Below, piece after piece: positions 2,052-52,932 of a stretch of 57,848 nt of DNA. The DNA comes from Catajapyx aquilonaris (lineage: Eukaryota), in the NCBI GenBank assembly GCA_000934665.2, contig JYFJ02002389.1, positions 1 to 57,848 of the forward strand, given 5' to 3'. A program made the position numbers and the translations under genes. The notes below the pieces were generated by a model. The model worked only from the letters and a program-made list of their open reading frames with translations. It was not told the DNA's origin and searched no databases. Each line of letters begins with the position of its first letter. The stretch's first letter is position 1.

Positions 2052-4101
2052 ATGACGGATTTACCGGTGAGTGACGTCACACTATGAGTACCTAACCATT
2101 AGCTAGCACCCTGATGTAACAGTTGGGATGATGTCTGTTTCAGAATCATGACAAAAATCCAGTCAAGGATAGCAAAAGGATCATCTTCTGGAAACGGCCC
2201 ATTCAGTTGAGTTCGTGGTTGACTTTTTGCGAGAAAAGACAGCTGGCTAAGAAGCAGGTCAGTATTTAGAAGCTCAATTTGACATGTAAAATAGAGGTTG
2301 AAAATTTGGCTTGACTATGATTGTATGTGAATGGGCCGTGATTATTTGAAAACGGCGCTCGCATACACGCAGCGAAATATTCTGCGTGTGTCTGACAAAA
2401 CCGGACAAAACCGTGGAGAAAGGGAAATTGGTCAAGTTCATGTATAAGTTGCAGGTCACAGTGCAGTAGGCCTATTATATCGCCATTGACATCGCGTCTT
2501 GACTCTGTTGCAAATAAATAATCATTTTTGACGGGCTGGGTGCAAGAGGGGCCCATCCCGCTTATAGGCCAAAAAGACGTTTTTTACTGATTTGATAGTA
2601 AATACCATATGTGAGTGACATGAAAAACCTGCTCGAGTTTGCATTGGCCCTGGCGCCATTAAAAATCATTAAGACTACCCTGATCGGCAAGATGTAAGGA
2701 GATCTTAGCGGATTTGGTAAGAATGGCACGTATCCTAACCCATTACAAGATGACTGCAGCAACTGCCTATGACCAGAATTAATGTAATATAATTAATGCA
2801 TATGAATATATTAATTAATATGATTAGACTAAATATCCATCATATACTCAACAAACGATATAAAAGTTAACGCAAATAAGTGAGCTGGAATATTTAAGGC
2901 TGGGCCTATAATATTATCAGTAGCCTCAGGTAGCCTATATTTCTAAGGACCGTATTCATAATTCATTAGAATGCAATTCGCCCCCCCGAATCTACTATAG
3001 TCGAACCCCTCGCATTCAGCTGTCAAATGTTAACTCTGGAAGAATGCTTTCGATCTGATTATATTTTTCGTGTGTTATTAAAAATATATAAAAGTGGCAA
3101 TTTTTCCCTTTACATCATCATTTCTCAAAATGAATGTATAGGTTGAGATGGGTCCATCTTGCACCAATTTTACAGCTGGTCAAATTCAGCAGGGGGTGGG
3201 TGGGGAGTGACCTAACCTGAGTCTTCTACAACCATGCTCCAACTCCATGTAAAAACTGGCTTCAATTTTTCTTAGCAGTTATGTATCTAGTAGTTATATA
3301 GCAGATATCTTTGGTTGTGGGCCAGTCCACCGGCGGATACTATACTGTTTCTGTGGCCCCGAATGCTCCTGTACTATTGGTGTGAAAATCAAAGCACTGA
3401 CGCAAAATGCTCACTATCGACGTCTGTAATTCACGTGGCTGTTATTCTGAAGCGTTTATTTTATTTTATAGCAAGAGATGCTGGAGGAACTGAAATCTGG
3501 AAAACTGGATGCCGTCAAGCACAATTTCTCCTCCCTTGCAGGAACAAGCACTGGCAGTAGCAGCTGCTTGGAACATGGCAGTGGCAGCTGCTTGGAACAT
3601 GACAGTGGCAACTGCTTGGAACATATGCCAGACACTGTCTGGACCTCGACAATTCACGAGGGAGAAAAGGATGATTGCTCCCGGACCTCCAACCCAAAGT
3701 GGACTTTTAGCATCGCCTCTGCAGAGAATACACCGTCCATAATCGACCAGGTGTGGAGGCAGGTTTCTCAGCCGAAACATAAGCGGCCGTCCACTGATGA
3801 GCCAAAGAAGGTGCCTTTCATGACAGATGCAGACGACGACGCTGAGCCCAGCAAGGAATATCGCCTACACGTCAACGGGCGAAAGAAAAGGCCGTTCCTG
3901 ACAGACGATTTGGACGACGATGGGTTCGACGAGGAAGAGGACCAACACTACGACTGGGAGAAGCATAGGTGGGACCTTATCACCGTGGAAGACAGATATA
4001 GAACCTTTAGGAGGACTGGTCTATCCATCGACGAGGAAACCTTCGACGAAATGGTCCACAGGTGAGCATACTCTTGACATAACTAACTTAGGTGAATAGT
4101 G

Positions 4102-4154
<53 letters not shown>

Positions 4155-7100
4155 CCTTTCACGTCATCCTATGGAACGTTGAAACAGAAAGAATTAGATC
4201 ATTCGATGACTTTTCTTAAATAAAATCTAACAACTTATTATTTCCCCACACTATTACTAACACGAGCAAAAGGATGGCCCAGGCGGCTGGTTGTAGACTT
4301 GGTTTATTTTGCTTTGCTTTGCTTTGTTTTATTTTGTTAGTTAGAAAATTAATATTGCAAGAGAGGCGGAAACCGAAGCCACGAGGTCTAATAAATTACT
4401 GGTTTTCATGTGTTTTGGGGTATATATATATATATATATATATATACCCACAATTATATATATATAATAATTGAGGTGGTGAAAATCAAAAACCGACAGC
4501 TCCGTCATAAACGTAACGGAGAAAAACGAGAAAAACCTACAGTTTCGCCGTATATGTCAATGTAAATTCCTGACTTTAGCGGCTATTCTCATGTACATAT
4601 GTAGGGTTTTTGATACCATATTCAGGTATTATGTAGTCCATGGCATGAGGAATGCATTTCCGGCGCTAACTCATTTTTTTTTATTTTCTGGAGCTGTCGG
4701 TTTTTGATTTTCACCCCCTCAATTGTGGGTAATGCTTTCACCCCTCACGGGGTATATCGCATGAACCTTTATTTTCCAGTTTTTTCTCTTAACCCTTTAA
4801 TTGATAATGTCCCTCCCTTCACTCCGGTGCAAGGAATCAAGGAAATTGGGTAGGGATAGGGATTTATCGGGGAGGGGACACGGGTGCAGGTGCAATGTCG
4901 TTAAACGGGTCATGTGCAGTCCCCCAGGAGGCTAGGTTGCCAGACACCTCCTTGGTGCAGGTCAGAGACCCTCATCCCGACGCAGGTGAAAGGAAAGTTC
5001 CCCAAGCGGGGCTCGAACCTGGGGCCTTTCACTCAGAAAGCCGAGACGTTAACATCTCGGCCACCACACCTCCCTTATTTTGGGGTATACACTATGTACA
5101 GTACTTGTATTTCACAAGTACAATATAATATTATAATCATCGCTGATTTCAGAAGCAACTATTGCATAAATTCACGTATGCACAAAATCATGATAATCAC
5201 ACATCGTCGGCCATAATAGACCATTTTAGAAAAACAGGAGAGCTAATAATAATAGATTTAAAATCGCAGTGTCACTGTATTAGCCAAAAAAATATATAAA
5301 AAACCTTTTTAAGAACACGCTTTATATTTCCAAGTGCACTAAAAAGTAGAAAATAATTTCTTCCTCAATCTTCAGCTTTCTCTTTTACCTTGAACTGAAC
5401 CGAAGATTCATGACTTTCTTTCCATGGAATTCAGCTACTGCAGTATATTGTCTTGCTTTACTTACATTCTTATACGGCCTACATGACGAAAAATAAAGCG
5501 TGGGCACTAAAATTTTAATACTGTACATGGTTATATTTCATGCCATGGAAGTAGATAATGTGTGATTAAGTGCCCACGCTTTATTTTTCGTCCTGTAGGC
5601 CGTATAAGAATGTAAGTAAAGCAAGACAATACTGCAGTATTAGCTGAATTCCATGGAAAGAAAGTCATGAATCTTCTGTTCAGTTCAAGGTAAAAGAGAA
5701 AGCTGAAGATTGAGGGAGAAATTATTTTCTACTTTTTAGTGCACTTGGAAATATAAAGCGTGTTCTTAAAAAGGTTTTTTATATATTTTTATTTTAACTG
5801 GTTTTTAGTGATAAAGTGGAAGGAATGACAGATGGATAGTACATGGGGCGTAAGGTGAATGGTGCCAGCAGACTGTGATTTGTAATCTTTTCACTTTGTC
5901 ACTAAAAAACAGTCCAGGGGTTACTCCCTCCCTGTAGTTTGGAGGAAGCGAACTGGATACTGAGAGCCAGTAACTCCAGTGACTGGCGTGGAGATAGCTA
6001 ACAGACCGACTCACGTGACTACTACCGCTAGTAGGTATGGAAGTTGCAAATTCACCCATCATGTGACTACTACCGCCAGATGGTAGGGAGGTAGCGAACA
6101 CACCCATTCACCTGACTGCCTCCAGATAATGGTGTGGAAGTGGCGGATCAGCCCACGGACACTACCCCTATCTTCTGGGCTTATCACCTGCCGAGGGATT
6201 ACGCACCGGGTGCTCCCTTGACACCGCCACAAGACATTTCCCAGAGCATTTATGTGGCGACCCTACCGGACTAAGGCTGAACTTTATAGGTACGAAAGGG
6301 GAGGGCTACATTGGGGGGCCCAACATGGCCGCCGGCGGCCATGTTGGGCCAGCATGTAGCCCTCGAGCCCTCCCCTTTCGTACCTATAAAGTTCAGCCTT
6401 CCGGTAGGGTCGCCACATAAATGCTCTGGGAAATGTCTTGTGGCGGTGTCAAGGGAGCACCCGGTGCGTAATCCCTCGGCGCAGGGGGTGGGTGGGGAGT
6501 GACCTAACCTGAGTCTTCAATAACCATGTGGCGGATGACCCCCAAACGATGCGGTGGAAGACGAAGTGACCTCATAAACTAAAGTGACTACTACCGCCAA
6601 AAACGTTGAGGTTGCGAAGTGACCCCTAACGGTAATTGTGGAAGTTGCAAATCCACCGACTCACGACGGACTCACGTGACTATTGCTGCTAGATGGCATG
6701 GAGATTGCGAACACAGCCAATGACGTGACTACCTGACTAGGATGTAGGGGAAGTAGCGACGGAGATGTGCAGCGATGTGCGAAACTCACGTGACTACTGC
6801 CGCCGTCTGGCGTTGATGTTGCAAAGTCAGCGCTAATGTGAATACCAACCGCTAGATGGTGTGGGAAGGCGCGAAATCAGCCCTAACGTTAATACCTAGC
6901 GATAGATGGTGGGGCAATGCTACTACTGCCAGATGGGTAGCCAATCACGTGACTACCTCCCGATGATGTGGTGGAAGGAGCGTCGGAGATGTGTAGCGAT
7001 GGTAGGGAGGTAGCGAACACAGGCAATCACGTGACTACCTCCCGATAGCGATGGGGACCTCACGTGACTATTGCCTCCAACTGGCGTTGATGTGGCATAG

Positions 7101-10932: not shown

Positions 10933-13179
10933 ATGGCGGATTTACCGGTGGGTGAGAGGTCGCACTATGAGTACCTAACCATTAGCCAAGCACCCTGATG
11001 TAACCGTCGATGATAATGTCTGTTTCAGAATCAAGACAAAAAGCCGGTCAAGGAGAGCAAACAAAAAATCCCATACTGGAGAAGGCAGCCCAAGTTGACT
11101 TTCTCTGAGAAGATTAAGTTGGCTAGGCAGAAGGTCCAGGCAGAGAAGGAGAAATACCTAGAGGAAATAGAGGATCGAGTTAGACAGGTATATTCACCCT
11201 TATATTAGTACTGACGTCGTAGTGGACAACAATGACTGTTAACAATATCAATATTCAGTATCTCAATTTGGCATGCAAAGAGAGGTTCCAAAGGTTTGTG
11301 TGTGTGAATGAGCCGCGATAATATTTTCAACGACAACGGCCCCCATTCACGAAATAATATTAGCATGATGACTGGAAAGTGGAAACACATTCCCATCTTT
11401 GCTTTTACTATTACTATAGGATACTTTTGCGACTACTAATAACAATCACCATGTATATCAGCACATCAGCAACAAGGTAATAAAGGTGAAGAGAGAAGAA
11501 AACACCAAATATAGATATATATATAGTATATAGTATATAGTATATATAGTATAGAGCCAGTATACATTAATTTATACAGTATACATTTATCCTAAGCCTA
11601 TTTGACTTTATATAGTATAGACTACTTCAGAGTTATATTGGGTGGAATTTTCGTCCCACTGCAAGTTACTACTAACTTACAAGTGTCATGGGCCCATGGC
11701 CAATACTGGTAGGCCTACATCTTAGTTAGCAGTAACTAGCAGTGAGACGAAAATTCCATCCATTATTTTGAACAAAAAACTACAATATTATGCCTGTTGG
11801 TATGGCGTCAACACCCAATAAGCATGAGTGTGATCCTCCATGGTACATGCCGAAAACCACAATGGTCGTCTGAAAAATCAGATGTGGCCTAGGATGTGGC
11901 AGTGGCATGTTCCGTTTTATTGTTTGCTTCCATATTATCAGCATACAGGAAGATGCGTTTTAAACCCCACGCCGCACCGTTATGTTTGACTGAATTGCAG
12001 GAGGTGCTGGAGGAACTGGAAGGAAAGTACCTGCCTGCCTACAGAGACCCTTTCTCCCATCGTACAGGAACCAGCACTAGGAATTATTACAGATGGTTCG
12101 AAGAGATGCCAATGACTGCCGGAACGTCGACAACTCACGTGGGAGATGAGGAGGATGAGGGGGACAAGGAGGATGACTCCTCGACCGCCACTCCAAAGTG
12201 GACATTTAGTACCGCCACCACAGAGGAGGATGACTCCTCGACCGCCACTCCAAAGTGGACATATAGTACCCCCACTACAGAGGAGGATGAACCGGCCATA
12301 ACGCGACAAGGGTGGCAGCCGTCTCTTCAGGTGGAATATCAGCCGTCCACTGATGGGCAAGAGAACGTGACTTTCGTGACGGATGAGTACGACGACGTTG
12401 AGACCAGTGAGGAATATCTCTCACGCATCAATGGACCACAACGAAGGACGTTCCTGACAGACGATTTAGACGATGACGTTGAGACCAGTGAGGAATATCT
12501 CTCACGCAACAATGGACCACAACTAAGGACGTTCCTGACAGACGATTTAGACGACGACGTTGAGACCAGTAAGGAATATCGCTCATGCATCAATGGACCA
12601 CAACTAAGGACGTTTCTGACAGACGATTTAGACGACGATGTGTTAGACGAGCAACGGGCCCAACACTACGATTGGGAGAAGCATAGGCGGGACAATGATG
12701 AAAGCTTCGACGAAATGGTCCGCAGGTGAGCATACTCTGGACATCACTAAGTGAATGGGGGGGGGGGGGGGAATTTCCTGATCTCCTTTCACGCCATTCT
12801 ATATGGAACGTTGAAGCCGGCAGAAAGTTGTTAGAACATTTGCTGCCCTTTCATAAATAAGATTTACAGATTATTGGCCGACGCTGCAGGAGGTATATGA
12901 TGTACAGTACTATCCCGAGAAAAAAATATAGATGCAGCTGGTTGTAGGCCGTTTGGTTTTTTAAATTATTGCAGGAGTAGCCGTAACTGCGGCCACGAAG
13001 TACAGTATATTCACTGGTTCTCAGGTGTGACTTTGGCATACAGGGACTTTCACAAGAGTACATAACGTCATCTTTTATTTCAGAAGTAGCTAATGCAGGA
13101 ATTCATGTTTGCTCAAAATTATGATAATCACATACGTATTAGCATTTTGCTCCCGTATAGTTATTCCTCGCTTAAATAA
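10933..13179 (+). CDS. Orphan acidic low-complexity protein, tandem copy B (4 exons, about 305 aa)
   Basis: Exons 10933-10947 (MADLP|gtgggt), 11029-11187 (NQDKKP...DRVRQ|gtatat), 12001-12725 (EVLEEL...DEMVR AG|gtgagc), 13161-13179 (S-YSSLK*). Paralogous to copy A (PKWTFS, PSTD, FLTDDLDDD, QHYDWEKHR, FDEMV). Confidence 0.72.
12373..12642 (+). repeat. In-frame coding tandem repeat, 81-bp (27-aa) unit, about 3.3 copies
   Basis: FLTDDLDDDVETSEEYLSRxNGPQxRT units start at 12373 (78 bp), 12451, 12532 and 12613 (partial). Confidence 0.9.
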
Positions 13180-29466: not shown

Positions 29467-30507
29467 CAGTAGGGTGGAGCGAAAAAAAACAACTAAAGTT
29501 GCCCGATTAAATCGCACGGGGTGTCAGAAGTTGTGTATGGACAAGTACAAGTAGTATAACACTGGTGATTCTTTTAAAAGAATTTTCGTACTTCATCTTC
29601 ATTTGTCGCCAGAGCCTTCAAGTTTCGCCATTTTTGCGAGAACAACACATATATTAGGCCTACATTATGCAACACGATTTTTGTCCATGGAAATTCATCG
29701 CTATTTCCATGTTGCTTACGTCGCTGGTAACTCATAATTGACCATTCATTTTGTGTGGGATTTGTTTTTGACCTTGGGGCAGTTGCAGTCAAAAAACCAA
29801 ATTCCTCGAAATACTGCATATCAGTGGATCATTCCGAATCAAGTAGTCCGAAATGTTGCTAGACCATCTCGGAATTTGCTGAAAAATATCACCGCTGTGC
29901 ATGACACGCCATGTCAAGTTTCAGCCAAATTACGCAATACCGTAGGGAGAGAAAAAAAAATCGCGAAATTTAGGAAAATAGTGAAAATCAGACCCTTTCT
30001 GATAATTTTCTCGATTAGTGGAAATGGTCAAACACCAATAAACAATACATCAAATGAAAGAGGATGACGAGGGGAATGCGGCTATGGAATTAGTTCCCCT
30101 CTAAAGTGTAACCAGAAAATTGTGCGTGGCATTCCATCGGTCACGTGCTCGGTCACATGTCCAAGAATTTTGAATTTTTCTGGTTACATTTGAGAGGAGA
30201 ACATACTAATTCCAGAGACGCATTCCCCCCGTCATCCTCTTTCATTTGATGTACTATATGTTTATTGGTCCCACCCTTACCTTATTTCCTAGTAATCCTT
30301 GCACCGGAGTTCGAAGTAAAAATACAATCAGAAAACTGTATGGTGGTCTGCCACCCTCCTATAACGACCAAGTAGTTGTATGACGGGGCAAATAAAATAA
30401 AATAAATATGTTTATTGGTGTTTGACCACGTCCACGAACCGAAAAAATTATCCGAAAGGGCTTGATTTTCACTATTTTCCTAAATTTCGCGATTTTTTTC
30501 CCTACTG
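29467..30507. mobile_element. Non-autonomous DNA transposon whose right half (29942-30505) is a long foldback
   Basis: TA|CAGTAGGG ... CCCTACTG|TA; 29942-30122 is mirrored by 30172-30269 plus 30420-30505. Confidence 0.7.
30270..30405 (+). mobile_element. 5'-truncated retroposon (SINE/LINE 3' end) inserted in the foldback arm
   Basis: 14-bp TSD ATATGTTTATTGGT (30256-30269, 30406-30419) and (AAAAT)n tail; ccttgcaccggagt is the reverse complement of 4821-4834. Confidence 0.8.
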
Positions 30508-38766: not shown

Positions 38767-39575
38767 ATGAAAATGATAATTACAATGAACTTTTGCCATT
38801 TAAAAAAGTATAACAGGAAGTGCATGTTTATTTTGAATTAGCGATCATTTTAGTCATTGTTCAAAGAATGATTGCATATAGTCAATACATTGAAAAGCAT
38901 TATATAATAATCAAAATTAAAATATGGATGGGGTCCTAAAAGACCCCACGTCACGGTTGCCGTAACTTTCAGGCACGTCACGATTCCAGGGTTAAAAACA
39001 TGTTTGAAGCTAATTTAGAAAGGGAGGTGGTTTTAAAGTATTTTTCTCACAACGAATTTTTTGCTGCAGGAATCGGGTAATGTAGTACAGTATTTCTACT
39101 ACACAACAACGAATTGATAGAGAGATGCAATGTTCCTTCCTATAATATTGTTTGTGGCCCACATGTATGGGAGAGTGGAGATGAATGGGACACAGGAGGA
39201 ATTGAGTGTATACTTTTTCTCAGACCGTGAAACAAAAAATCTTCGCGTTTTTTGGTATGACGAGACTGAGTGGCCCCTTTGTCCCATGTAATTACAGTGG
39301 TGTACCTGGCAGCCTAAAAATTGGAGGAAGAAAAAACTGGTTTCTGTCACTTCGGTCGACATTATTTTTTTTGTACGCCTGATGCACCGCTACTATAAAA
39401 GTGATTCATTCGTGACACTATTCAGTGAATAGTCATACCACTTAATGCTATTGTTGTTGATGTTACTTATGCATGATTTTAAGCACGATTTTTTAAAAAT
39501 ATCCCTGAGAAGCCAAAGGTTGCACACAAAATCGTGAGTCCTACTCTCCTCTAATGGTGAAATTTGACCTTCAGG

Positions 39576-42500
39576 ATGTCCCAGTCGCGCGAGGCCCTGG
39601 CCATGGACCTGGCGCGATCGCAAAGTTCCATCACCTTCGGGAAGAGCAAAGGCTGTTTCCTCAGCCGCGGCCTCGCATTCTTCCTGGCCCTACTCTTCAT
39701 CGGGGCTCTGGTACTGACAGGCTTACTTGTCTTCTACCTGGGAACATGCGGAGAAGGACGGACTGGATCTTCCCACTCGGAGTCATCGTTGTCCGACAGT
39801 ACGTCGACCGAGCCGTCGGAAGATTCAGACACTTCGGTCAAGGACGTACGGCTACCTACCAGCCTCTTGCCGGACCTCTACACGGTGCACCTGATACCCT
39901 TCATTCAGGAAGGGAACTTCTCCATTGCGGGACAGGTTTGGGTGCTGCTCAATTGCACCCAAACTACCAACAATATCACCTTGCACATCAAGGACATCCA
40001 GATTCAGGAGGCTGAGGTCGAAGTGCAGGAGGCGGCCACTAACCGCAGTCTGCAGGTCACTCAACACAAGTACGACAAGGACAGAGACTTTTACATAGTA
40101 ACCCTGGACCAAGATCTGGAGGAGGGCAAGCAGTATCAGCTATACATTCCGTTCACAGGCGAGCTGAATGACAAACTTCGAGGGTTTTATCGGAGCAAGT
40201 ACACCGACAGTGCCACCAATCAGACCCGGTGAGACACCGGTTGAAGTGAAGAAACAGGGCGGGAATTTATTTTTTATTTTTTAAATTCCATCGACAGATG
40301 GTTGGCCACGACTCAGTTCCAGCCGACTGATGCTCGTCGTGCTTTCCCTTGCATGGACGAACCGGCCCTCAAAGCCCGATTCCAGGTCAGCCTCGCGCAT
40401 TCCAACAATTACACGTCAATCTCCAACATGCCGATCGAACGGACCGAACCAATGTGAGTGACACAATGTGCTCTAATGATTTCAGCATCCTAAGACAAAG
40501 TGTCACCTGAATATATATTTCAGAGACGGCATGACTGGATGGGTTTGGGACCACTATCAGGTGTCGCTGCCCATGTCTACTTATTTGGTGGCTTTTGTGG
40601 TGTCTGACTTTGCAAATAAATCCTCCGATAAAAGTCTGAGCAATACACCATTCAGGTGAGTATACCACAGATAAGAATGGATGGAAAAATGGCATTGATG
40701 ATGTCTTGTTGCAGAGTTTGGGCTCGAGAAGGTGCCATCGCTCAAGCCGAGTACGCTAGGAAAATAGGTCCACAAATCCTTGAATTCTTTGGGACTTACT
40801 TTAACATACATTTCCCGCTTCCAAAACAAGACATGATAGCTCTGCCTGACTTTAGCGCTGGAGCTATGGAGAACTGGGGACTTATCACGTTCAGGTGACA
40901 ATACGTTGTGTATAGTACTGTCGTTATTAAAATACACCATTTACATAGCCATCCTTTTCCTACAGGGAAACCGCGATGCTGTATGACGACAATGTGTCAT
41001 CAGCCATCAACAAGCAGAGAGTAGCTACTGTCATATCACATGAGCTGGCACATCAGTGGTTTGGAAACCTGGTCACCCCCAAATGGTGGACTGATTTGTG
41101 GCTGAATGAAGGATTTGCCAGCTATGTAGAATATCTAGGAGTTGATAATGTAAGTAAAGTAGTGAAATGATGACTCAAGATGATGCCTCAATTGCACTCT
41201 TCTTTGCCACAGTGGGCTAGCTCAAATATGTATTTACAAAGCTATCGGGAAAGGGCGAGTTTCTCATTTTAGTTTGCGAAGTCAAAATTAAGCTATGCTT
41301 TGCTGAATATGCAAATTTTGTTTGTTGAATCACTCAGGCTGACTGGCATAGTAACGCTACTGAAATATTAATAAACAAAATGTTGAACAGGTGGAGCCAG
41401 ATTGGAAGATTCTGGAGCAGTTTGTGACTGCGGAAATACACAGCGTGTTTGGACTAGACGCCCTTGAATCATCACATCCTATATCAATCCCAGTAGGAAA
41501 TCCCGACGAAATCAATGAGATATTCGACCGCATTTCGTACGGAAAAGGTGCACAAAACTCGATCGACTCTTCACTGTACCGAATCCTGGTACATCTCTTA
41601 AAGCTCCACTTGTTCCGCAGGTGCATCCATTCTCCGAATGATGAATCATTTCCTCACGGAGAAGACCTTCAAAGCGGGTCTAGCGAACTACCTGGAGCAA
41701 TGGTAAAGCTTAAATATGTGCAACCACATTGTTAATACTATACATTTGTTGTAACTTGCAGGAAGTACAGCAGCACCGAACAGGATGACTTGTGGCGTGC
41801 GTTGACGGACAAGGCACATGCCGACAACAACCTACCAGCTGACCTGAACGTGAAGGAGATCATGGACACATGGACGATCCAGATGGGCTTTCCTGTCATA
41901 AACGTGATCAGGGACTACGACCGTGGTACAGCTGTAGTATCTCAGGTATATCGCACTCCCACGATTCACCTGAACTCTCCTTGTCACTTGGTTTAAGCGT
42001 GCAGCGTCTCCGTAGCTCAATGGCAGAGCACTGGCCCTTCTTTCTAAGAATGGGCGGGGTCCCGGGTTCGATTCCCGGCGGGGATAAAGCACAAGGTCTT
42101 TTTCCTGCAATTTAGATGGATATACATATATATGGATAGATGTGGCTACCTGCCAGTGTTGACGAATCTCTTGCAGACTCGCTTTTTGGTAGTGGAGCAA
42201 ACCAACTCGACGGACCGGCACCACTATTCGTGGTGGGTACCGCTGTCGTACACGTACCAGGGAGAGGGCAACTTCAGCGTAGCTAACACCAAGCCAAAGT
42301 CCTGGTTGGGCAAGAATGAAACGGAGAAGACGCTGACGGGATTTCCAACCGGAAAGGATGCCTGGGTTTTGTTCAACATCCAAGAGACTGGTATTGTGAA
42401 CAGGGTTTTTCAATGTATTCTGGGTGAAGATAGACGAGCCAAAAATGCCATTTTTTGATCGTTACTATGCTAGTTTCAGGGCGCTAGTGGTTGACATTCT

Positions 42501-45500
42501 TTTGGTTGTCTGACATATTTCTTCTGCATGGTATATAAAAATACTTGCCTAATTTCAGGATATTATCGAGTCAATTACGACTCCAGAAACTGGGATTTAT
42601 TGGTGGCACAGCTGCAGAACGATCATAAGCAGATTTACGTCATAAACCGCGCTCAGCTGCTAGATGATGCCCTAAATTTGGCTTGCGCTGGTCTCTTGCC
42701 ATACGAAAAGGCTCTGGAGGCTACCAAATACCTTCGTAATGAAACCGAATTTCTTCCCTGGGATGCAGCCTTTAGTAGCATACGTTATCTCAGCGACATG
42801 CTTCTCCGTACTGAAGGATATGGCCTCTTTAAGGTAAGTAATGTAACCAGGAAGCAAGACCACTGGGACATTACACTCTCCCTTGTCAGATATACGTTTT
42901 GGATCTGCTAAAGCCACTGTACAAACAAGTTGGCTTTGAGAAGAAACCAGGAGATGGTCAGCTTGAAATCTACAACCGGGTGAATCTCCTAACCTGGGCC
43001 TGTGCCTTGGGTATGGACGATTGCATTAATCGAGCTTCCGATAGCTACCGTTCGTGGATGAACCAATCTGATCCAGACGCCTATAACCCGTGAGCATACA
43101 ATTAGCACTTACGTAAGCAACGGGTACTGATCTTCTGGTTTTGCAGAATTCCTGTGGACCTGAAACGCTTGGTGTACTGCACAGCAATCAAGCATGGCGG
43201 CGAGCAGGAGTGGGAATTTGCATGGGAGCGTTACCAGAGGGCCAATGTTGGTTCAGAGAAAGATACGCTTTTGTCCGGTATGGGCTGTTCTCGTGAAGTG
43301 TGGATACTAAGCAGGTACAGTACACACATCTACTGTACAAACCAGGCTTACTTATAGACCTTGGGTCTTTCAGGTACCTGAACTGGTCCTTGTCTGAAGG
43401 CTCCGGGATTCGCAAGCAGGACGGATCCACCGTGTTCCGAGTGGTGTCCAGCAACCCCATAGGCCATTACTTGTCCTTTGATTTTATCCGAGACAAGTGG
43501 CAACGGATCATGGAGTAGTGAGTTTGGTGTTGGGAGAGGGGATTTTCATTCTAGACTGTCCTCCTCCATACCTCTACCTTTTTGCCCCCCTCATGGCAAG
43601 GCTGGGAAGGGGCAGAAAAAGAAGGCATTTTCACCACACCTTACTTCCACTTATCCTATTTAACTTTTCTTTAATCTTCTGTTGCTTCCTGATTCTTGGT
43701 GTGACTAACATTTTTATTATAGTTTTAAAACTAACGCATGTGTATTATAGCTCATAAACTATATTGCATAGTTGAATGTCAACAATCAATTCTTGCTTGC
43801 CCTGCTAGCTGGGAGGATATGCGCTTGTAAATTAAAATGGGTTAACTTGTACTGTGGTATCACGTACTGTGCTTATCAAGAATACGGAATGTGCAACCTT
43901 GGGATCAGGCATGATGATGAGAATCATTCTTGCATGCGCGGCTGTATTCCAACCGTTTCCTTGGGACGAACGCAGTTAAATCTAATTATTTTTTAACTAA
44001 CCAGGCAAAATTTAGCTCATCAGTAGTATGTGACGAGGAGTAGCATATACGGCTAACCAATTATTCAAAGATAGCGTGGTTTTTGCAAAAATAATTGACC
44101 TAATCAATACTGCATGGTCATAATGTAAAGATAGAGCTCAAAACCGTATTGTTGTAAATAAGCTTATAGCAGTGAACTATAGTCATAAATTAACGTAATG
44201 CCTGTGCAAGGAACAATAATTTTGATGTCTATTAACACTATCATCCTTCTGTATTTTTAGTCTGAGGTAGAAATTATTGTAATGGGAAAGTAATTAAGGG
44301 GATATGTGTGTTTTCCGTGGATATTACTTGATGCACATGTCACTTACAATGAGAGAGATTCCTTGTTAGTAGGGCGGTCTAAAAAAAAATAACTTTTTTG
44401 AAACCATCTGCGTTCTTGGGAATATCCCCCTAACCCTGTGTTCTACCTTGCTTACCCTTCCAGTTACGGCACCGGCTTTTTCGCAATTTCCAGCATGATC
44501 GAAGGTGTCAGCCAAATTCTCAACACCCCCTTTGAATTGCAACAGGTGAGTTTGAAATGCTTGTTGTTTTTCTTCACCCCTTCCCTACGGCAAAAATAGG
44601 CAGAGTTTGAGGAAAATTGATCAGGTATTTTTTTGACTATGGAAAAAAAAAGAGAAACTGTTCATCTCAGGAGGAGGGCAGTAAGGATATTTTTGGGGGC
44701 GGAGCAGGATATCAACTTTTGGGTTAAATTGCAGTTACGGGGGTGCAGGGCCTGGCCGATCTGGAATTTCTACCCTCAGTCGCCGATTTAACACGCCATT
44801 CGAGTTGCGGCAGGTAAGAGATGCACGTAGATTGGAGGTCACTTCGTAAAAGCTGTGGGACCACTTTGGTGTTTTTTTTTTAAACAATGAAATAATGGGC
44901 GCACACGTACATAAGCCTTATTCTGAATTTTAAATATGCCTTTATTACGTGCTAAATTCGGGCATGTTATGGGGCGAATACATGACATATTTAACCGTAT
45001 ATCCTTTAGAGTGAATATGGCTGCAAAGACTCGGAAGGGACAAAAGTGATACTGTCACTTAATAATAGGATTCCCTGTGGTTATAGATCATTGCTGCTTG
45101 AAATTGTTGCTATAAGTACAGTCTGAACGAGCTAAAACGGTAGATTAATTTCAATGGATTATGTAATTGAGGAAATTAAGCCTGGTTGAAAACTTTTCAG
45201 TTTTGATATTTTTCAGTTTGATACAGCCACAAACGAGTCGGAAAAATATTTAATTACTTGCTATAGGAAGACATGTAGGCCTATTGGTCATTGATAACTG
45301 TGTAGTGTTTATTAATTTTGACTTTTAATAAAATAATTACGGTCGTGTGTAGGAAGGATGAATTTTTCTCGGGCTCTTTCGGATTATTATTTTGATCCTG
45401 GGCATTCAGCATTAGTAAATGCCAATCCATTTGTGCGTAAATTTCTAAACTAGTTAGAAAATTATCAAAACTAATTTTTCTCTATGCAATAGCTTACTAG

Positions 45501-46086
45501 TTACTATGGTCAGTGAGATTTAAAAGTAGCTATCCAATTTTTAAAGTTCGAACCGTCACTGTTATGGTTTGCTTGTTAAAGTTCTATTATTTTTATCAAA
45601 TTAAATTGGATTCTAGCTCTATTAAAGCTGATTAAAGTTCCGACTTACGTCACCTTGTTATCATTGATAAACTGTAACAAATGACAACAATGGTGACTTA
45701 TGTCCGAAATTTAAAAACAGGAATACACTATGTTGTAGGAAACTGCATATTTCCTAGCTTTAATGAATTCGATGTACAATAGAGTTTTGGCGCGAAGTTT
45801 TGTTAGCCTCATAACATACGAACTTGCACGTAATAACAATTCGTCTCTGTAGTTGAGGGACTTTGGAAAGATGCTGCACTTGCTAACTACTGTCGTACCC
45901 AGATAATGATGATGTTGCCTCCCTCTTTAGATGCAAGAATTCCAGAACAGAAACCGAGGTTCCTTGGGAACTGCCAAGCGAGCCGTGGAACAGTCATTGG
46001 AAAAGACTGATGCGAACATTCGCTGGATGGAACAAAACTTCCAGGCCATCTTGCAATGGCTACGGAAGAATCAGCCCACCGCCTGA
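39576..46086 (+). CDS. APN: Aminopeptidase N-like M1 zinc metallopeptidase, type II membrane-anchored (about 988 aa)
   Basis: Exons 39576-40228, 40298-40453, 40524-40655, 40715-40894, 40966-41149, 41391-41547, 41621-41702, 41762-41945, 42177-42390, 42559-42833, 42890-43089, 43147-43314, 43374-43517, 44464-44545 (or 44735-44813), 45931-46086. All GT-AG and in phase (2967 nt). N-terminal TM helix, Ser/Thr stalk, [19 protein letters not shown] (40860-40874), HELAH-x18-E (from 41039), ISYGKG and an ERAP1-like C-terminal domain. Confidence 0.96.
42006..42086 (+). pseudogene. tRNA-like sequence (SINE head or tRNA pseudogene) in an APN intron
   Basis: A box TAGCTCAATGG, B box GGTTCGATTCC, pairable acceptor stem, but an oversized irregular anticodon arm. 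Confidence 0.6.
44735..44813 (+). CDS. APN: Alternative (mutually exclusive) penultimate exon of aminopeptidase N
   Basis: ttgcag|[27 protein letters not shown]|gtaaga; same phases and same ends as 44464-44545 ([27 protein letters not shown]). Confidence 0.8.
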
Positions 46087-47240
46087 AACCAGGGCAGAGG
46101 CATCTACTGGACAAGTCAGACATTTGCTCTGACCAATACCCGCTGACCCCAACTTTTGTGGAGTGTGCGGGAAGAACTGTTCTAATTTTTCTCTGTTTTA
46201 TTTCTTTTCGTGGAATTTTCTTGCACATACAAAAAAAAATGCCGTAGAGGACAACTTTTTCGTACTTGTCTTGCCAAATTAAGAGATAAGTGTTAGCCAT
46301 GTTCATTTCTTTCTCGTGATTTGTCACACTCGGATGATCCATTGCTATCCCACTCATGCATGTCTTTCTCCATCAATCACTGCTGCTCAGACTACAAAAG
46401 AAAAACACACAGCGCTAAGGAAGACTCTGATGACGTGCCTTGTAGATAAGCCACAGTTGTAAGCATTGTTGCCCGAAATGGAGGAATACCACAATAAACA
46501 GTACGTACAGAAAAAAATAACACCCCGAGGCAGGGAATGGCCAAGACAGCTTTCTGTGGCTTGCCATTATTTTTACACGTGAAAAAATAATCACCTTCAT
46601 CATCATCGTCACCACCATCATCGCCATCGGCCCATCTTCGGCACATCTTCGCAATTTTTGGCACAGAGATTGAGTTGCAATCGCTGGTACACGACAATCG
46701 GAATATTCCCTTATATTATAGTGCAAATTTCCAGGATCGGCAACTCTCCGACGTGCAAGTGTAAAACTGTACAGAATGGCTTGCAACAACAACAACAACA
46801 AATGTATGCTGCCTGCGCAAAGCCAGTGAACGGGGGGAAAACATTCTATAAATAATAAATAAAAAAAGTGGAGCTTACATGTGAGATTGCCAATTATCAT
46901 CTTTTTTGAATATAATATTGTATCGTGTCATCACTGTCGAGGAGCTTGTGTGTAAAGCAGCCATAATAACGACGCTGGCAAGCGTTAAGAAAAATAAAGG
47001 CGAGAAAATGAAGAATTGGAGTTTTGCTACTTCTCACATATCTTTATTGACGACAGTCACATACAGGGAGAGAGCCCATCCAGAGTGGCCAAAAAGTCGA
47101 GGTGTTTCCAAATTCGGGGCAGAGGGGTCATCCAAGGTAAGGGGCGAGTAGTTGAAGCGAGGGGACTCTCATCTGTCCTTCTGCAAGTACATCAGGATTA
47201 GTTTCTACCACCAGGTCACCAAACAAGACTCACCGTCTGA

Positions 47241-47619
47241 CTAGTTTTCGGGGGGAAACCAGGCAGAGCAGGTGTCATAGGCGATCTCGCAGAGAGCCGT
47301 CAGGGATTTGGTAGCTCCTTCATAATCTAGGAAAGAATAGATATCAGGACACTAACGACGGAAAACAACGCAGAGGCGTCGCTACACTACTGTCTTCAAA
47401 AAAAACTTGGTGAGAAAATCTCACTCATAGCAGCAGTGAGACGACGCCTCTGTCAATGACCCTGCACGTTTTAGGATGCGACTCACCAGCTGATGAACCA
47501 CGCTTTCCGAAGATGCTCCCGTTGAAAGGTGGCTTGCGGTAAGCTGCTGCCGTGTCCTGGCTAAGGACCAGAACCAGAGCCACAACGGCCAGAAGAATGA
47601 AGGTGCGTACTGATGCCAT
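47241..47619 (-). CDS. SIFa: SIFamide neuropeptide precursor (72 aa)
   Basis: Coding exons 47619-47487 and 47326-47241: signal peptide MASVRTFILLAVVALVLVLSQDTAA, then AYRKPPFNGSIF-G-KR, then GSSADYEGATKSLTALCEIAYDTCSAWFPPEN* with the typical two-Cys tail. Non-coding exon about 47923-47859, 3'UTR intron 47233-47181, AATAAA at 47048-47043. Confidence 0.97.
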
Positions 47620-47736
47620 AATACTGTCGGGAGACAAAGATGAGCAACAGTATGTTTGTGGCCACTTGTACAGAAAGCCACTACTATATGACACTGAGTA
47701 TGGATGAAGGAATGGACAGAGTGGTAGATCCAAAGG

Positions 47737-47810
47737 TCCCTCCGCCGGGGGTCGAACCCGGACCTCGGACTTAGCAAAGTCCGCGTCCTCACCACTTGGA
47801 CCACGGAGGC
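47737..47810 (-). pseudogene. tRNA-like sequence (SINE head) in SIFa intron 1
   Basis: GCCTCCG TGGTCCAAGTGG ... CGGAC-tttgctaa-GTCCG ... GGTTCGACCCC ... CGGAGGG; the anticodon loop is 8 nt. Confidence 0.6.
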
Positions 47811-47919
47811 CACCTCTTTGGCAACTCGGTAGATTAGACAGACAGGACTGGAGCTTACCTGAAGTGTTGGGAGATGTGAGAGCTGAGAGAAGATCTGCTG
47901 ATGACTGGATCTGGCACCA

Positions 47920-47954
47920 CACTGGCTCCGGAAGCGCAGATGCTGGCTTTTAAA
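47920..47954 (-). promoter_or_regulatory. Putative SIFa core promoter (TATA-like plus Inr-like)
   Basis: Minus strand TTTAAAAG (47954-47947) about 30 nt upstream of CCAGT (about 47923), followed by the donor cag|gtaagc at 47859. Confidence 0.5.
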
Positions 47955-48756
47955 GGTCCGCGCCGACAACCCAGGGCCCCAGAGGTTAAGAGGGAAGTTA
48001 ATAGTCTTTGAAACCCTATATTAGTCACCTCCCTGGCGTTATGATTCAATTAAGTAGCTTGCAAAGAAGTTTGGGTTTGGCCAACTTGGACCTTTCTTCC
48101 GCGCAGTCGTCTAATGGAGCCAAATGAGTTTGGATTGGCACTCACGCTGCCTTGATTGGGTTACGGCGGTCGAAGATTGGATGATGAAAGAAATGGAGGT
48201 GGGCCTTACTCTTATTCATTTGTATTCTTGCGCGGGTGTAGGCGGACGTGTCACCTAGATGTGACATCTGTGTCCCCATGCCCACCAGGCACTAAAAGGC
48301 ATTGGCAAGGAAGTATCGAGCTGATTTCTCCAGAAAAATTGAATCTGCAGGGCAGTTATCTGAGCTAAAATTCAATATTCTTTCCAATATTATTTGAGAT
48401 TGGGAACGATCTTGGCAGGACTTTACTTTGGCGGGTCATGACGCACTTTGTGGGCAGAAAACATGCTTGATATATGTAATAGTTATGGTAGATCTTTGAT
48501 CTTCGAACGAATGGATTGCATGGTTCAGAAGAAATTTAAATAAATTATAGTCCTCATTTAGAATTTACTGATTAGTATAGGCTACCTTGGCTTGTTTGGC
48601 TGAAGCAGTGTATATGAAATGTGATGTGACGCCACAAATGAAGCTGAATTTTGATCTCAATGTTTATAATTTTTATAATACACGATTTCTTTGGCCTACT
48701 CACTGTCTTACAAAATAATATATTCTCTCCCATAATGTTTGTCAAACACAAAACAG

Positions 48757-49083
48757 CAGTGGTTCCCAACCTTTTCGGGCCTTCACATCCCTTTGAGAGC
48801 AGTTGGTCCTTCTCGTACCCCCTATATACCAGGATGACAGATTTACCGAATCCTTGACATTTAACTAATCCGTGATAATCGTGATAACTACCTTATAATC
48901 AATATTTTGGGACCAGGAATATGATGAAGTGAAAGAAAATTTAGTCATTTTTAAGCCACTTATGGGTAGTACTATGTCCAAAATTGCTCGATTTGGACTC
49001 AGGGGAACTTACCTCTGCACCCCCGCCAAGAGGGCCACCTCGCACCTCCTGGGGGTACGGGTACTCCTGGTTGGGAACCCCTG
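48757..49083. mobile_element. hAT-family MITE in the SIFa-ETH intergenic region
   Basis: TIR CAGTGGTTCCCAACC / GGTTGGGAACCCCTG; TSD not preserved. Confidence 0.8.
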
Positions 49084-49645
49084 ACCTAGGGTCTGTTTCA
49101 TATCAATACTAATTAAGTTCCTATTGTATACTGCATGTCAAAATGTACTGTATAATCGAAGACTTTCCCTTGACACAATCAATTCTTTATTCAATTACTG
49201 AGAAGTTTACGAATAGGCGGGTGAATGTACCTTTCATCGCATTGCCATTGCGGAAGGTGCTTTTTCTTTTCCTATATGATGCTCACTCTGCAAAACATGC
49301 AAGTGCTAATTGTATTTCCATGTAGCCACCAGCTCGCGAAGTGAAAAGCGTATCACAATCATTATCTTTTTTTCGCGAAAAATATTGTTGCCTTTCACTG
49401 TGTGAACAACAATAGCAGAAAAAATAATCTCATATTGATTTTTAATGATACTTTACCATAATTCTGTATCTTCTGCTCAGCTTTATTTGACTTTGGGGCA
49501 GGGGAGGATGATGTGAGGCTTTGAATCGCAAATTTTGCACATAACAAAATTTGCAAATCGGAAGGAACAGGTGCATGGATGGTACGGGTTTATGCTGGTC
49601 TTGTACTACCCACATCCATCCATCCTGACAGATAAGACTAGTGGT

Positions 49646-49727
49646 TATAAAATGGCTTGTGGTGCCCGAAACAACAATCTCCTGGTTGAGAGCGTTCAGC
49701 ATACATCTATCGTTCCAAATACACAAG
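49646..49727 (+). promoter_or_regulatory. Putative ETH TATA box and non-coding first exon
   Basis: TATAAAA at 49646-49652; strong donor caag|gtaagc at 49727; next acceptor ttctag|50179 precedes the ATG at 50224. Confidence 0.55.
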
Positions 49728-49890
49728 GTAAGCTTGTGGACATTGCCACTTCTTGATTATTTGCACTGGTCTGAGGAAGCGCACTATTTAGTGGCGACAA
49801 CTGGTTAATTAGTCGGGAGAGGTGTGGCTGCCTTACTTGCCCGGTTGCCCACGTAGGAACTTTCCGGTTGAAACCCTGCATTTAGAAACA

Positions 49891-49900
49891 GTGACGTCAC
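49891..49900. promoter_or_regulatory. Perfect CRE/bZIP palindrome in putative ETH intron 1
   Basis: GTGACGTCAC. Confidence 0.35.
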
Positions 49901-50223
49901 TCAGCTCATGTGATTTTGATCCCGTCCATAACCACGCAAAATTGGCTTCTATCCATCCGTAATCAAATTTGGACACGTCATCCGGATGTAAGTACGCGGG
50001 CCATTTTCTCCTCTCCCGAACACTTTCCACGCTCGCCGTACTTTTAACAAAAGCGCTTTTGTCGTCAAATGCAATCACGCTAAACAACTTGCCGTTAAGC
50101 TACCAAGGCCTTGAAGTGGCCAAATTGCGCAGCGTTCTTAAACCCGAAATAAAACTCGCATTACCAATATATTTCTAGTATCTTCGGGAGATAATTATCA
50201 TCTCATTTCCAACACTGATCAAC

Positions 50224-51167
50224 ATGAGTCTTTCTGGATACAAGAACTCAGGTAAGTTGTTTCAGTGTATGTACCCACACACCACCACCACCACCACCAT
50301 GAATAAAAGAGCAGGTTATATAATAATTGTCTTGTTGGGCGTAATCAGGAACTGCTCGTAAATTAGCAGCTAAAGGCCCATCCCCTCTTCGATTGCCTTT
50401 AACAAATTTGCCTTGGCTTAGAGGATTCGATTAAGGCACTTCCGCCGCCTTTCTAACCACAAAAAATTTCACAATCCCATTTGGTGTGGGAAGCGGAAAT
50501 TACGTCTCCTCACCTTTTGCTAGCATAATGAAGTAACTAATAACGACTTCAATCTATATGTGGTCCATTGAGAAGGAAAACCAAGAAGGTCAAGGTTAGG
50601 ACGGATTTTACAAATGCCAAAATATGATTTGACAGTGTGCTGCAAATGGTACGTGACACTGGTGATGGTGTCCATGGCACTGATGGTGGCCGGAGACAAC
50701 TCACAGTTCTTCCTGAAGACTTCCAAGAGCATCCCTCGCATGGGCCGTCGCGGTGACCCTAATGCCCAAGAACCTGTGTCACCTTTCTTCCTCAAGACCA
50801 GCAAATCGATCCCCCGACTAGGTCGTCGAGGTCAGCCGGAATGGCCACTGAACCAGGTACCTCCATTGCAACATTGTCGACACTTCTTGCACAATTTTGC
50901 ATTTTGTGGGAGGACATGGACTCATGCGAATCCCTACTGTGGGGTCTTACATACGCTCGTGTATACCTCGTATCAAGTCACTACAGTGTATTTTTATATT
51001 AGGATTCGCAGGAAGGACAGGCTCCGTCAGAAGAATTGGTTCTAACTTCAATGCAAGATATTCCTCCAGCTATCCGAGACAGACTCCTGACTCTGCTGTC
51101 TAATACAGAGGACAACAACAACAACAGTAACAACGGCAACAACAGGGGAATCTGGTGGATGGGATGA
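50224..51167 (+). CDS. ETH: Ecdysis-triggering hormone precursor (about 137 aa, two paracopies)
   Basis: Exons 50224-50251, 50636-50856, 51003-51167: signal MSLSGYKNSVCCKWYVTLVMVSMALMVAG, DNSQFFLKTSKSIPRM-G-RR (50695-50742), GDPNAQEPVSPFFLKTSKSIPRL-G-RR (50752-50820), then an acidic tail. FFLKxxKxxPRx-amide is the ETH consensus. AATAAA at 51428-51433. The middle exon is secure; the flanking exons are less so. Confidence 0.92.
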
Positions 51168-52844
51168 AGGACGAAATGCGACCAACTGTGGTGGTGGGAT
51201 CAACTGTAGTTTATTTATCAGAAACCCAATTGCGTTAATACGGAAATAGCGGTGTTTGAAATGTAATAATTTATTCCAGCCGGATATTCTCAAGCGTTAG
51301 TTTCATGACGTTCCATAACTTATGCGGCATTTTGTCATGGAATTTTTCTCTTTAGCGGTGCTAGTGAAGCATGGTATTTACGCCAGTATTAAAACTATAC
51401 CTTCATTGTCAATCATCAACTCATTCAAATAAATTGCATATATAAAATTTGCGTTTTATTTAAACAGCTCCATTTGTGGCTAATTTAAAGCAGCGTTGGA
51501 AAAGGTATCAAATTGCATGTCTTGTCCCTGGAAATGAACTTGTCGCATAAATAAATTAACTATCAAATTTTGTTCAACCCCTGAAAGCAGAACTTGGAAA
51601 AATATTTGACCCAATAACAGGCAATTGGGGCCTATTTGGCATTTTTTGGTATGCTTTTTGAGCAATTTCGGGGCATTTTGGGTATATTATGGACCTATTC
51701 CTTCAGAGGCATCTTTGTTTTTTTTTTGCCGAGTATTTTTTGTGCTCCTGAAAGCTCATTCAGAAGTAATACGACACAGTTTCACTAATGAAAGTCTAGA
51801 AAAATGCCTGTGCAAGTGGAAATGGGCTATAAGCGGTATAGAGTCCAGAACTAGTGATATACTTGCTTGGGCTTTGTCTTTTTCTCACGTTTTGTGATTA
51901 TCTGTCAGTTATTTTTTGTTATTCGGTTTTTGCTCTGGTTTGTGACCTTATATTTCATACTTTAGGCATATAAAATTTTTTCTAGCTTTTTGATTTTCTG
52001 TACCATTATTCTCTGTACACCTGCAAAAGCAAGGTTTTTGTGCCTAATTGAGGTTTTTTCGATTATATTTCAGGGTTTATTTGCGCATATTTCAGACTGT
52101 TTTCTTGCCTAAAAATACAGGCTTTACTACTTATCCTCCTGAGACCCGAGAAGTATTGAGTAACGCAATGTCAATTCCTACTGCATTTTTTTCTGAACAT
52201 TTTCCCAATAAAAAGTGTGAAAAAATTATGGTTCGAAAATATTGACAAAAATAATGACAAACAACCAATGAGAACATTAGGACCCAATTGCTGCTACAAA
52301 AGAAAAATGGATGAAAGCTGACAATTTAAATGCCACTCAATGGATCACTTACATAGTGCTCTATCCCCCAAACAAAGTTTTAAAAATTCATTTGTGGAAT
52401 ACGTGGTTGAAATTAGTATCAGAAGACAATATATTAAGATAAACTGCAATTCTTTTTGAATGCCACCACTCCAGGTATGGGGATTGCTCCTTCTCTGCTT
52501 ACCTCCTAGCATGGTACCTCGTTATTCTAGATTTTCAAACTGAACTGTAGTGCAAAGCACACTTCCTTGTGGGTGTACAGGTTCAGGCATTTAAAGAAAA
52601 GTCACAGCCTATTCAGCTGAAAAAACTTTTTTTTTCGAATGTCCATTTAAATGGGCATTTGGTCTCAGGAAGAAAATAAAAACCCCAGTTCTCGACAGCA
52701 ACAAAGATTGTCACATAGCCTACACATCTTTTCGTATTTCATAATGCACATTCCTTGCGAATCCCAGGACATTCACTGATTGACGAAAATCGCTCTCTAT
52801 AAATATGAGTAAAAAAATAAAACTTATCAGATGAGCGCCTATAT

Positions 52845-52932
52845 AATTTAATAACTCATGAAAATGGCGTATGCCGCTGCTGAAGCTATAGCTTCAGCAG
52901 CGGCATACGCCATTTTCATGAGTTATTAAATT
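52845..52932. repeat. Perfect 88-bp spacerless palindrome
   Basis: aatttaataactcatgaaaatggcgtatgccgctgctgaagcta|tagcttcagcagcggcatacgccattttcatgagttattaaatt. Confidence 0.95.

Follow-up and report, generated by a model that had tools for sequence, protein, structure and literature searches.

Neighbouring SIFamide and ecdysis-triggering hormone genes in Catajapyx aquilonaris: an apparently old hexapod linkage in a probably lineage-specific head-to-head layout

Conserved linkage of neuropeptide genes is known from AstC/AstCC, the two bursicon subunits, and GPA2/GPB5, pairs whose members are paralogs or heterodimer partners. Another familiar kind of close gene pair shares a bidirectional promoter, with starts under 1 kb apart, often without a TATA box, and with a conserved orientation. 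Here we describe a pair from Catajapyx aquilonaris in which the genes for the neuropeptide SIFamide and for ecdysis-triggering hormone (ETH) stand side by side on contig JYFJ02002389.1 (assembly GCA_000934665.2; the 57,848 nucleotides analyzed are referred to as the window). As in the neuropeptide pairs above, these are secreted-peptide genes long kept adjacent. In contrast, SIFamide and ETH show no sequence likeness, are produced by different cells in insects and, to our knowledge, do not share a receptor family. As in bidirectional pairs, transcription diverges from a short interval, but orientation is not conserved, and the interval (about 1.75 kb) holds two TATA-like boxes and a transposon. 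No description of the linkage was found in the open-access literature (subscription neuropeptidome papers fall outside that scope), and published tables giving identifiers for both genes leave it unremarked in the parts considered here. A deeply conserved SIFamide-ETH linkage is therefore apparently undescribed; both genes, and microsyntenic pairs as such, are of known kinds.

The first-pass annotation of the window had placed SIFamide on the minus strand and ETH on the plus strand, head-to-head and about 1.7 kb apart. This arrangement was borne out. Both genes are intact, each gave 1 match in the genome assembly, and they diverge from predicted starts at about 47923 (SIFamide) and about 49676 (ETH). 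These starts are consistent with the positions of both TATA-like boxes, which lie about 1.7 kb apart, or about 1.4 kb without an inserted miniature inverted-repeat transposable element (MITE). Gene models were compared with contigs of a public run, X1, whose library and tissue are without record. Its contigs lack introns, and on that ground we treated the run as transcript-like. Both SIFamide and ETH are represented among them.

The SIFamide coding model starts at an ATG at 47619, crosses a GT-AG intron (47327-47486), and stops at 47241, yielding a 72-aa precursor. Its N-terminus is hydrophobic (best 11-residue hydropathy 3.6, the signal peptide being judged by hydropathy only). A single copy of the mature peptide AYRKPPFNGSIF, ending in PFNGSIF-amide, is followed by GKR, and the C-terminal associated peptide carries two cysteines, as in the Rhodnius and Strigamia precursors. 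Described arthropod precursors (Rhodnius, Strigamia, thrips) are alike in signal peptide, single xRKPPFNGSIF-amide copy, GKR site, two-cysteine C-terminal peptide, and length (about 72-79 aa), with no substantial difference. A protein database search returned one match, a beetle protein named SIFamide (68% identity, E 5.4e-5), while tblastn matched exon 3 to the SIFamide loci of metagenome contigs L002, L005, L013, L018, L021, L022, and L025. Three introns are absent from the X1 contigs, namely 47624-47858, 47327-47486, and the intron of the 3' untranslated region (UTR) at 47181-47233, the last of these being absent from the first-pass annotation; the joint 47623/47859 is covered by 55 nt on its shorter side. 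No SMYamide-like paralog was found in the genome assembly.

The ETH model comprises four exons encoding 137 aa, with two FFLKTSKSIPR(M/L)-GRR copies in exon 3. A 744-nt X1 contig (record 4) aligns to 51001-51418 from its base 327. The 328 nt upstream of 51003 equal the sum of the predicted upstream exon lengths (221 + 73 + 34 nt), and the contig thus fits the four-exon model; no ETH splice joint was among the X1 joints listed. Pfam gave no family for the peptide exons of either gene, and an Atlas search yielded no ETH match at or above 0.9 and no usable matches. The ETH motif agrees with published ETHs of Anopheles, thrips, and the centipede Strigamia, as well as with the relative P0001. Identification as ETH rests on the FFxKxxKxxPRx-amide motif, joined by the G-R-R sites and a predicted signal peptide. 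Insect and myriapod ETHs (Anopheles, thrips, Strigamia) share this motif and the G-basic-basic site. They end in PRI or PRL, whereas the first C. aquilonaris copy ends in PRM. Two ETH copies, as found here, are listed for Protura, Diplura, Archaeognatha, and Zygentoma in Table 1 of PMC4770511.

Published gene tables place the same two genes together in other insects. In Gryllus bimaculatus, SIFamide (GBI_07129, Scaffold39 4382305-4384876) and ETH (GBI_07130, 4483375-4511070) are both listed on the plus strand with consecutive identifiers, in tandem across a gap of 98,498 bp (gene table of PMC9960350). In Frankliniella occidentalis, SIFamide (FOCC005838, Scaffold45 1771911-1780164) and ETH (FOCC005837, 1767431-1770843) are tabulated as immediate neighbours on the minus strand, again in tandem, with a gap of 1,067 bp (PMC7570057). 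Identifiers listed in PMC9387463 for Anopheles gambiae (AGAP007056 and AGAP007062) and An. albimanus (AALB005004 and AALB004998) put SIFamide and ETH six apart in both species, with five intervening; this closeness is judged from identifier order. One intervening gene in An. gambiae, AGAP007058, is named as DLX (Distal-less) in PMC13640935. Within AGAP007056-AGAP007063, as tabulated, Orc4 follows ETH. In Drosophila, Orc4 presumably lies beside ETH with Dll nearby, and SIFamide and ETH presumably share band 60D-E of 2R. In vertebrates, NPVF and NPFF, which are related to SIFamide, lie near HOX clusters. A deeper homeobox-linked neighbourhood around the pair is possible.

A degenerate SIFamide pattern retrieved 24 further loci from metagenomes. 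Three of these (L007, L019, and L020) matched by chance, their sequence giving no SIFamide reading, and 21 were kept. Eight had at least 3.3 kb downstream of the SIFamide peptide; the other 13, with less than 3.3 kb, were uninformative for a tandem ETH. In 5 of the 8 loci, corresponding to 3 of 6 organisms, ETH followed SIFamide on the same strand. The distance between the two peptides is 2.5 kb in L002, 1.9 kb in L018, and 3.3 kb in L005, L021, and L025. The last three are 98-99.7% identical and were counted as one organism, presumably hymenopteran-like as judged from its peptides; the L005 contig ends inside the ETH exon. A head-to-head ETH was found in none of the six loci with at least 3.2 kb upstream (L004, L008, L017, L021, L023, and L025; four organisms). 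Single PRxG-like matches in L014, L017, and L023 were set aside as chance, with no dibasic site and about 3 expected by our estimate.

The ETH genes of L002 (4298-5125) and L018 (3255-3987) encode one copy each; an intron interrupts the mature peptide midway, and a signal-peptide exon precedes it. The L018 gene has a complete open model; the start codon of the L002 gene was not located. The split peptide defeats single-exon motif searches, and these two divergent genes were recovered by looking beside SIFamide. We had considered both contigs as crustacean, an assignment dropped in favour of springtails. In a KCTD3 tree, the L018 neighbour groups with the Collembola Folsomia and Orchesella (100/100), and a single ETH copy is the springtail pattern given in the relevant part of PMC4770511. 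L002 and L018, which have a CD36 neighbour in common, are thus probable springtail contigs, and with this reassignment all positive evidence from outside Hexapoda is gone.

How much does this recurrence say? Assuming totals of 15,000-25,000 genes, 40-50 of them for neuropeptides, chance would put at least two neuropeptide genes next to each other in 6-15% of random genomes, so that one genome alone proves little. For one given pair, the same assumptions give about 1e-4 per genome. Since the same pair is adjacent in five other lineages, coincidence is refuted for the linkage. An assembly artefact might be suspected because the interval contains a repeat, but it could alter the orientation at most. 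We give next to no credence to either account. Outer neighbours differ between lineages (an M1 aminopeptidase in C. aquilonaris, Ssu72 and CD36 in L002, an HMG-box gene in thrips), which makes the pair itself the conserved unit. These data support SIFamide-ETH microsynteny conserved across hexapods, and the pairing looks very old. The first-pass annotation had suggested conserved microsynteny from an ancient neuropeptide cluster. The microsynteny stands among hexapod relatives; the cluster is not shown, as only these two genes are linked in the loci covered here and nothing outside Hexapoda bears it out. As lineages are not independent trials, recurrence indicates inheritance rather than selection.

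Several observations run against the linkage or are equivocal. ETH and SIFamide of Rhodnius are assigned to different scaffolds, KQ034462 and KQ035590, in PMC6993403, and the Litopenaeus genes listed in PMC11673531 (LOC113828029 and LOC113820189) are far apart in identifier order. Published species with both identifiers, as tabulated, thus comprise two of six with adjacent genes, two of six with genes six identifiers apart, and two of six, both fragmented, with genes apparently apart. We take the fragmentation to be a property of the Rhodnius and Litopenaeus assemblies. The data examined from crustaceans, myriapods, and chelicerates gave no support for linkage. The Ixodes supplement lists SIFamide and has no row under 'ETH' or 'ecdysis' in the part considered, the Strigamia supplements provide precursor sequences without gene positions, and the relevant parts of PMC9151784, PMC4237046, and PMC2575521 give no gene positions for the pair. 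Among the metagenome loci, no ETH motif was present near SIFamide over 7.0 kb downstream in L009, 3.3 kb downstream in L017, and 10 kb to either side in L023, nor in the L017/L008 group as a whole; L009, L017, and L023 are unplaced, and L009 is possibly a paralog. Finally, the KCTD3 tree has a long L018 branch and no named crustacean, which leaves the placement of L018 uncertain.

The relative orientation of the two genes differs between C. aquilonaris and its relatives. All five oriented relatives (Gryllus, Frankliniella, the L021/L025/L005 organism, L002, and L018) are tandem, with SIFamide followed by ETH on the same strand, and none is divergent. In the KCTD3 tree, C. aquilonaris falls outside both Collembola and winged insects, on a short branch. 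Its genome gave no PDF match and one weak match each to the odorant-receptor and odorant-binding-protein families, in an incomplete assembly. According to the part of PMC4770511 that covers them, Protura and Diplura both lack PDF and have a two-copy ETH. Together with the two ETH copies found here, these traits and the one tree marker suggest a wingless hexapod from outside the insects. With tandem pairs on the springtail and winged-insect sides of C. aquilonaris, tandem is the parsimonious ancestral state, and the head-to-head layout is most likely a lineage-specific, local inversion. SIFamide was taken as the inverted gene because inverting ETH would give a tail-to-tail pair; the direction of change is likewise a deduction. 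The converse, that head-to-head was the ancestral hexapod state and that springtails and winged insects each acquired tandem order independently, would suit the early, short branch of C. aquilonaris. It would require two inversions rather than one, and the interval itself bears a sign of rearrangement (see below), so that we regard it as very improbable.

That sign comes from the MITE between the promoters (48757-49083), which we take to be hAT-like from its 8-bp target-site duplication. The element is dispersed, with 45 other matches in the genome assembly (40 scored of 202 candidates). In all five copies that were fetched, 6-8 of 8 target-site bases match, while the interval copy lacks such a match. 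This points to a deletion or rearrangement after insertion, at the end facing SIFamide. The left end of the element, at 48749-48757, may be a deletion or inversion breakpoint. No second MITE copy or partner breakpoint was found near SIFamide.

Shared regulation through the head-to-head layout, the other suggestion of the first-pass annotation, found no support in the tandem relatives, the two TATA-like boxes, or the 327-bp transposon. Its strongest form, a bidirectional promoter or shared enhancer in the 1.75-kb interval that co-expresses both genes in C. aquilonaris, would fit the divergent layout and the presence of both genes in run X1, with its unrecorded tissue. Two separate TATA-like boxes with a transposon in mid-interval make it unlikely, however, and the predicted start spacing exceeds the usual 1-kb definition. 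The promoter regions are also no more alike than shuffles. A 12-base shared stretch with one mismatch and the likeness of the first donor sites of the two genes had been considered as traces of common origin, a reading rejected because 218 of 1000 shuffles scored as high. No oriented relative is divergent, and we consider the shared-promoter account very improbable.

Sequence scans of the interval gave little sign of common control. There was no excess of ecdysone elements: the ETH scan found no IR1 with 0-1 mismatch and one 2-mismatch site, at 49219, which counts as 2 with both strands included, against 1.7 expected, and is at chance level. Across four intervals, from C. aquilonaris and relatives, conserved non-coding words were sought and rejected: 8 8-mers were shared, where shuffles averaged 5.6 and reached at most 10, and nothing was common at 9 or 10 bases. 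Judged from the TATA boxes, the transposon, the lack of shared 9- and 10-mers, and the five intervening Anopheles identifiers, regulation of SIFamide and ETH looks separable.

A perfect cAMP-response-element (CRE) palindrome, TGACGTCA, lies in ETH intron 1, where 0.0 were expected in 100 shuffles of the intron; 6 motifs were scanned in 5 regions. Two further CRE half-sites occur in the same intron. ETH of Drosophila is under ATF/CREB-type control. As a candidate regulatory site, the palindrome is a lead only.

Together, these data lead us to a model in which SIFamide and ETH would already have stood side by side in the hexapod ancestor, if not earlier, as a tandem pair with SIFamide first. A small inversion in the C. 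aquilonaris lineage would have flipped SIFamide and brought the promoters back to back. Each gene would be driven by its own TATA core promoter and its own cell-type enhancers. In insects, SIFamide is expressed in brain neurons and ETH in ecdysteroid-responsive peripheral cells, and by analogy the same division may hold here. The pair would persist mainly since rearrangements rarely separated the genes, and not through a common promoter. The mosquito pair accommodates other genes in between, and neither orientation nor spacing nor interval sequence is constant among the relatives, which is why we favour such passive retention with independent promoters, as slightly more probable than not.

Selection on cis-regulation is a serious rival. 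One gene's enhancer may lie within or beyond the other, or both may sit in a common regulatory domain of peptidergic cells, possibly inherited from a time when ETH was neuronal too, leaving orientation free and adjacency fixed. Immediate adjacency holds in five relatives and in C. aquilonaris while the outer neighbours differ, which favours selection over passive retention, as does the cricket, where identifiers stay consecutive over 98 kb. Moreover, neither an inversion nor a shift in spacing of roughly 100-fold has separated the pair, and ETH is described as neuronal in decapods in the part of PMC4888303 considered. Adjacency is relaxed in mosquitoes, however, the Rhodnius genes are on different scaffolds, no ETH motif is near SIFamide in L009, L017/L008, or L023, and no conserved non-coding words were found; motif scans have little power across such evolutionary distance. 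On balance, we hold cis-regulatory constraint to be possible, as a tentative alternative. Its boldest version, in which selection would have maintained a regulatory block since before the hexapods as a relic of a neuronal ETH co-regulated with SIFamide, appears doubtful.

Table 1. Positions in the window of the SIFamide and ETH genes and of features within and beside them.
Feature	Position	Strand	Basis
M1 aminopeptidase gene, tail-to-tail with SIFamide, limits approximate	39561..47004	+	Pfam PF17900, PF11838; spliced X1 contigs
SIFamide exon 4 (3' UTR), AATAAA at 47048, end approximate	47030..47180	-	Joint 47180/47234; motif list
SIFamide exon 3, two-cysteine associated peptide, stop at 47241	47234..47326	-	X1 contigs, tblastn
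SIFamide exon 2, ATG 47619, signal peptide, SIFamide peptide and GKR	47487..47623	-	Sequence, X1 contigs
tRNA-like element, undefined anticodon, in SIFamide intron 1	47735..47810	-	ARAGORN
SIFamide exon 1, non-coding, 5' end putative	47859..47923	-	Donor at 47858; joint 47623/47859 in X1
SIFamide TATA-like box TTTAAAA (read 47954-47948)	47948..47954	-	Sequence; putative function
hAT-like MITE (presumed), 327 bp, between promoters; terminal inverted repeats intact, target-site duplication non-matching	48757..49083	.	Genome copies
ETH TATA box TATAAAA	49646..49652	+	Sequence; putative function
ETH exon 1, non-coding, 5' end putative	49676..49727	+	Donor at 49728; 744-nt X1 contig supports indirectly
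CRE palindrome, perfect, ETH intron 1	49892..49899	.	Motif scan
ETH exon 2, ATG at 50224, 73 bp	50179..50251	+	In-frame GT-AG model
ETH exon 3, signal peptide and two ETH paracopies, each then GRR	50636..50856	+	Motif compared with published ETHs
ETH exon 4, stop 51167 and 3' UTR	51003..51418	+	X1 contig record 4 spans 51001-51418

The M1 aminopeptidase beside SIFamide was rejected as a member of the conserved block, having no match in the 24 metagenome loci. Its 3' region contains mutually exclusive exons (44464-44543 and 44735-44811), either of which joins 43517 to 45929 in X1 contigs. The two keep the reading frame and have similar end residues, and they probably arose by exon duplication. 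A 1,077-nt contig extends from its last exon (45929) to 47004, close to the SIFamide polyadenylation signal on the opposite strand (47048). Going by these strandless contigs, the 3' ends of the two genes overlap or are within tens of bases. A tRNA-like element at 42006-42086 in the aminopeptidase gene, called as tRNA-Arg, is probably a tRNA-derived repeat. The same probably applies to the element in SIFamide intron 1, which has no second copy within the window.

Elsewhere in the window, acidic open frames at 3472-4065 and 11893-12729 are related (34% identity, E 6e-13) and fall in no Pfam family; the second has internal repeats, and the two may be a duplicated gene or a repeat. Palindromic or fold-back stretches at 5288-5790, 6190-6480, 30034-30269, and 52845-52932, the last a perfect palindrome with 44-bp arms, are probably transposon remnants.

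The main interest of this locus lies in the old linkage; the head-to-head layout is probably lineage-specific and of little interest by itself. The linkage joins two unrelated, well-studied signalling genes and is relevant to neuropeptide biologists. ETH is hard to find by similarity (Pfam was blank, and one database match was obtained), and searching beside SIFamide offers a practical route. Where the pair is tight, a large deletion or a transgene insertion in either locus can also affect its neighbour. If the linkage is constrained, it would provide a handle on the shift of ETH expression between neurons and peripheral cells. A regulatory block of the kind that we consider doubtful would, if real, tie a brain peptide of behavioural state to the trigger of moulting, and would help to account for the passage of ETH from neurons to Inka cells.

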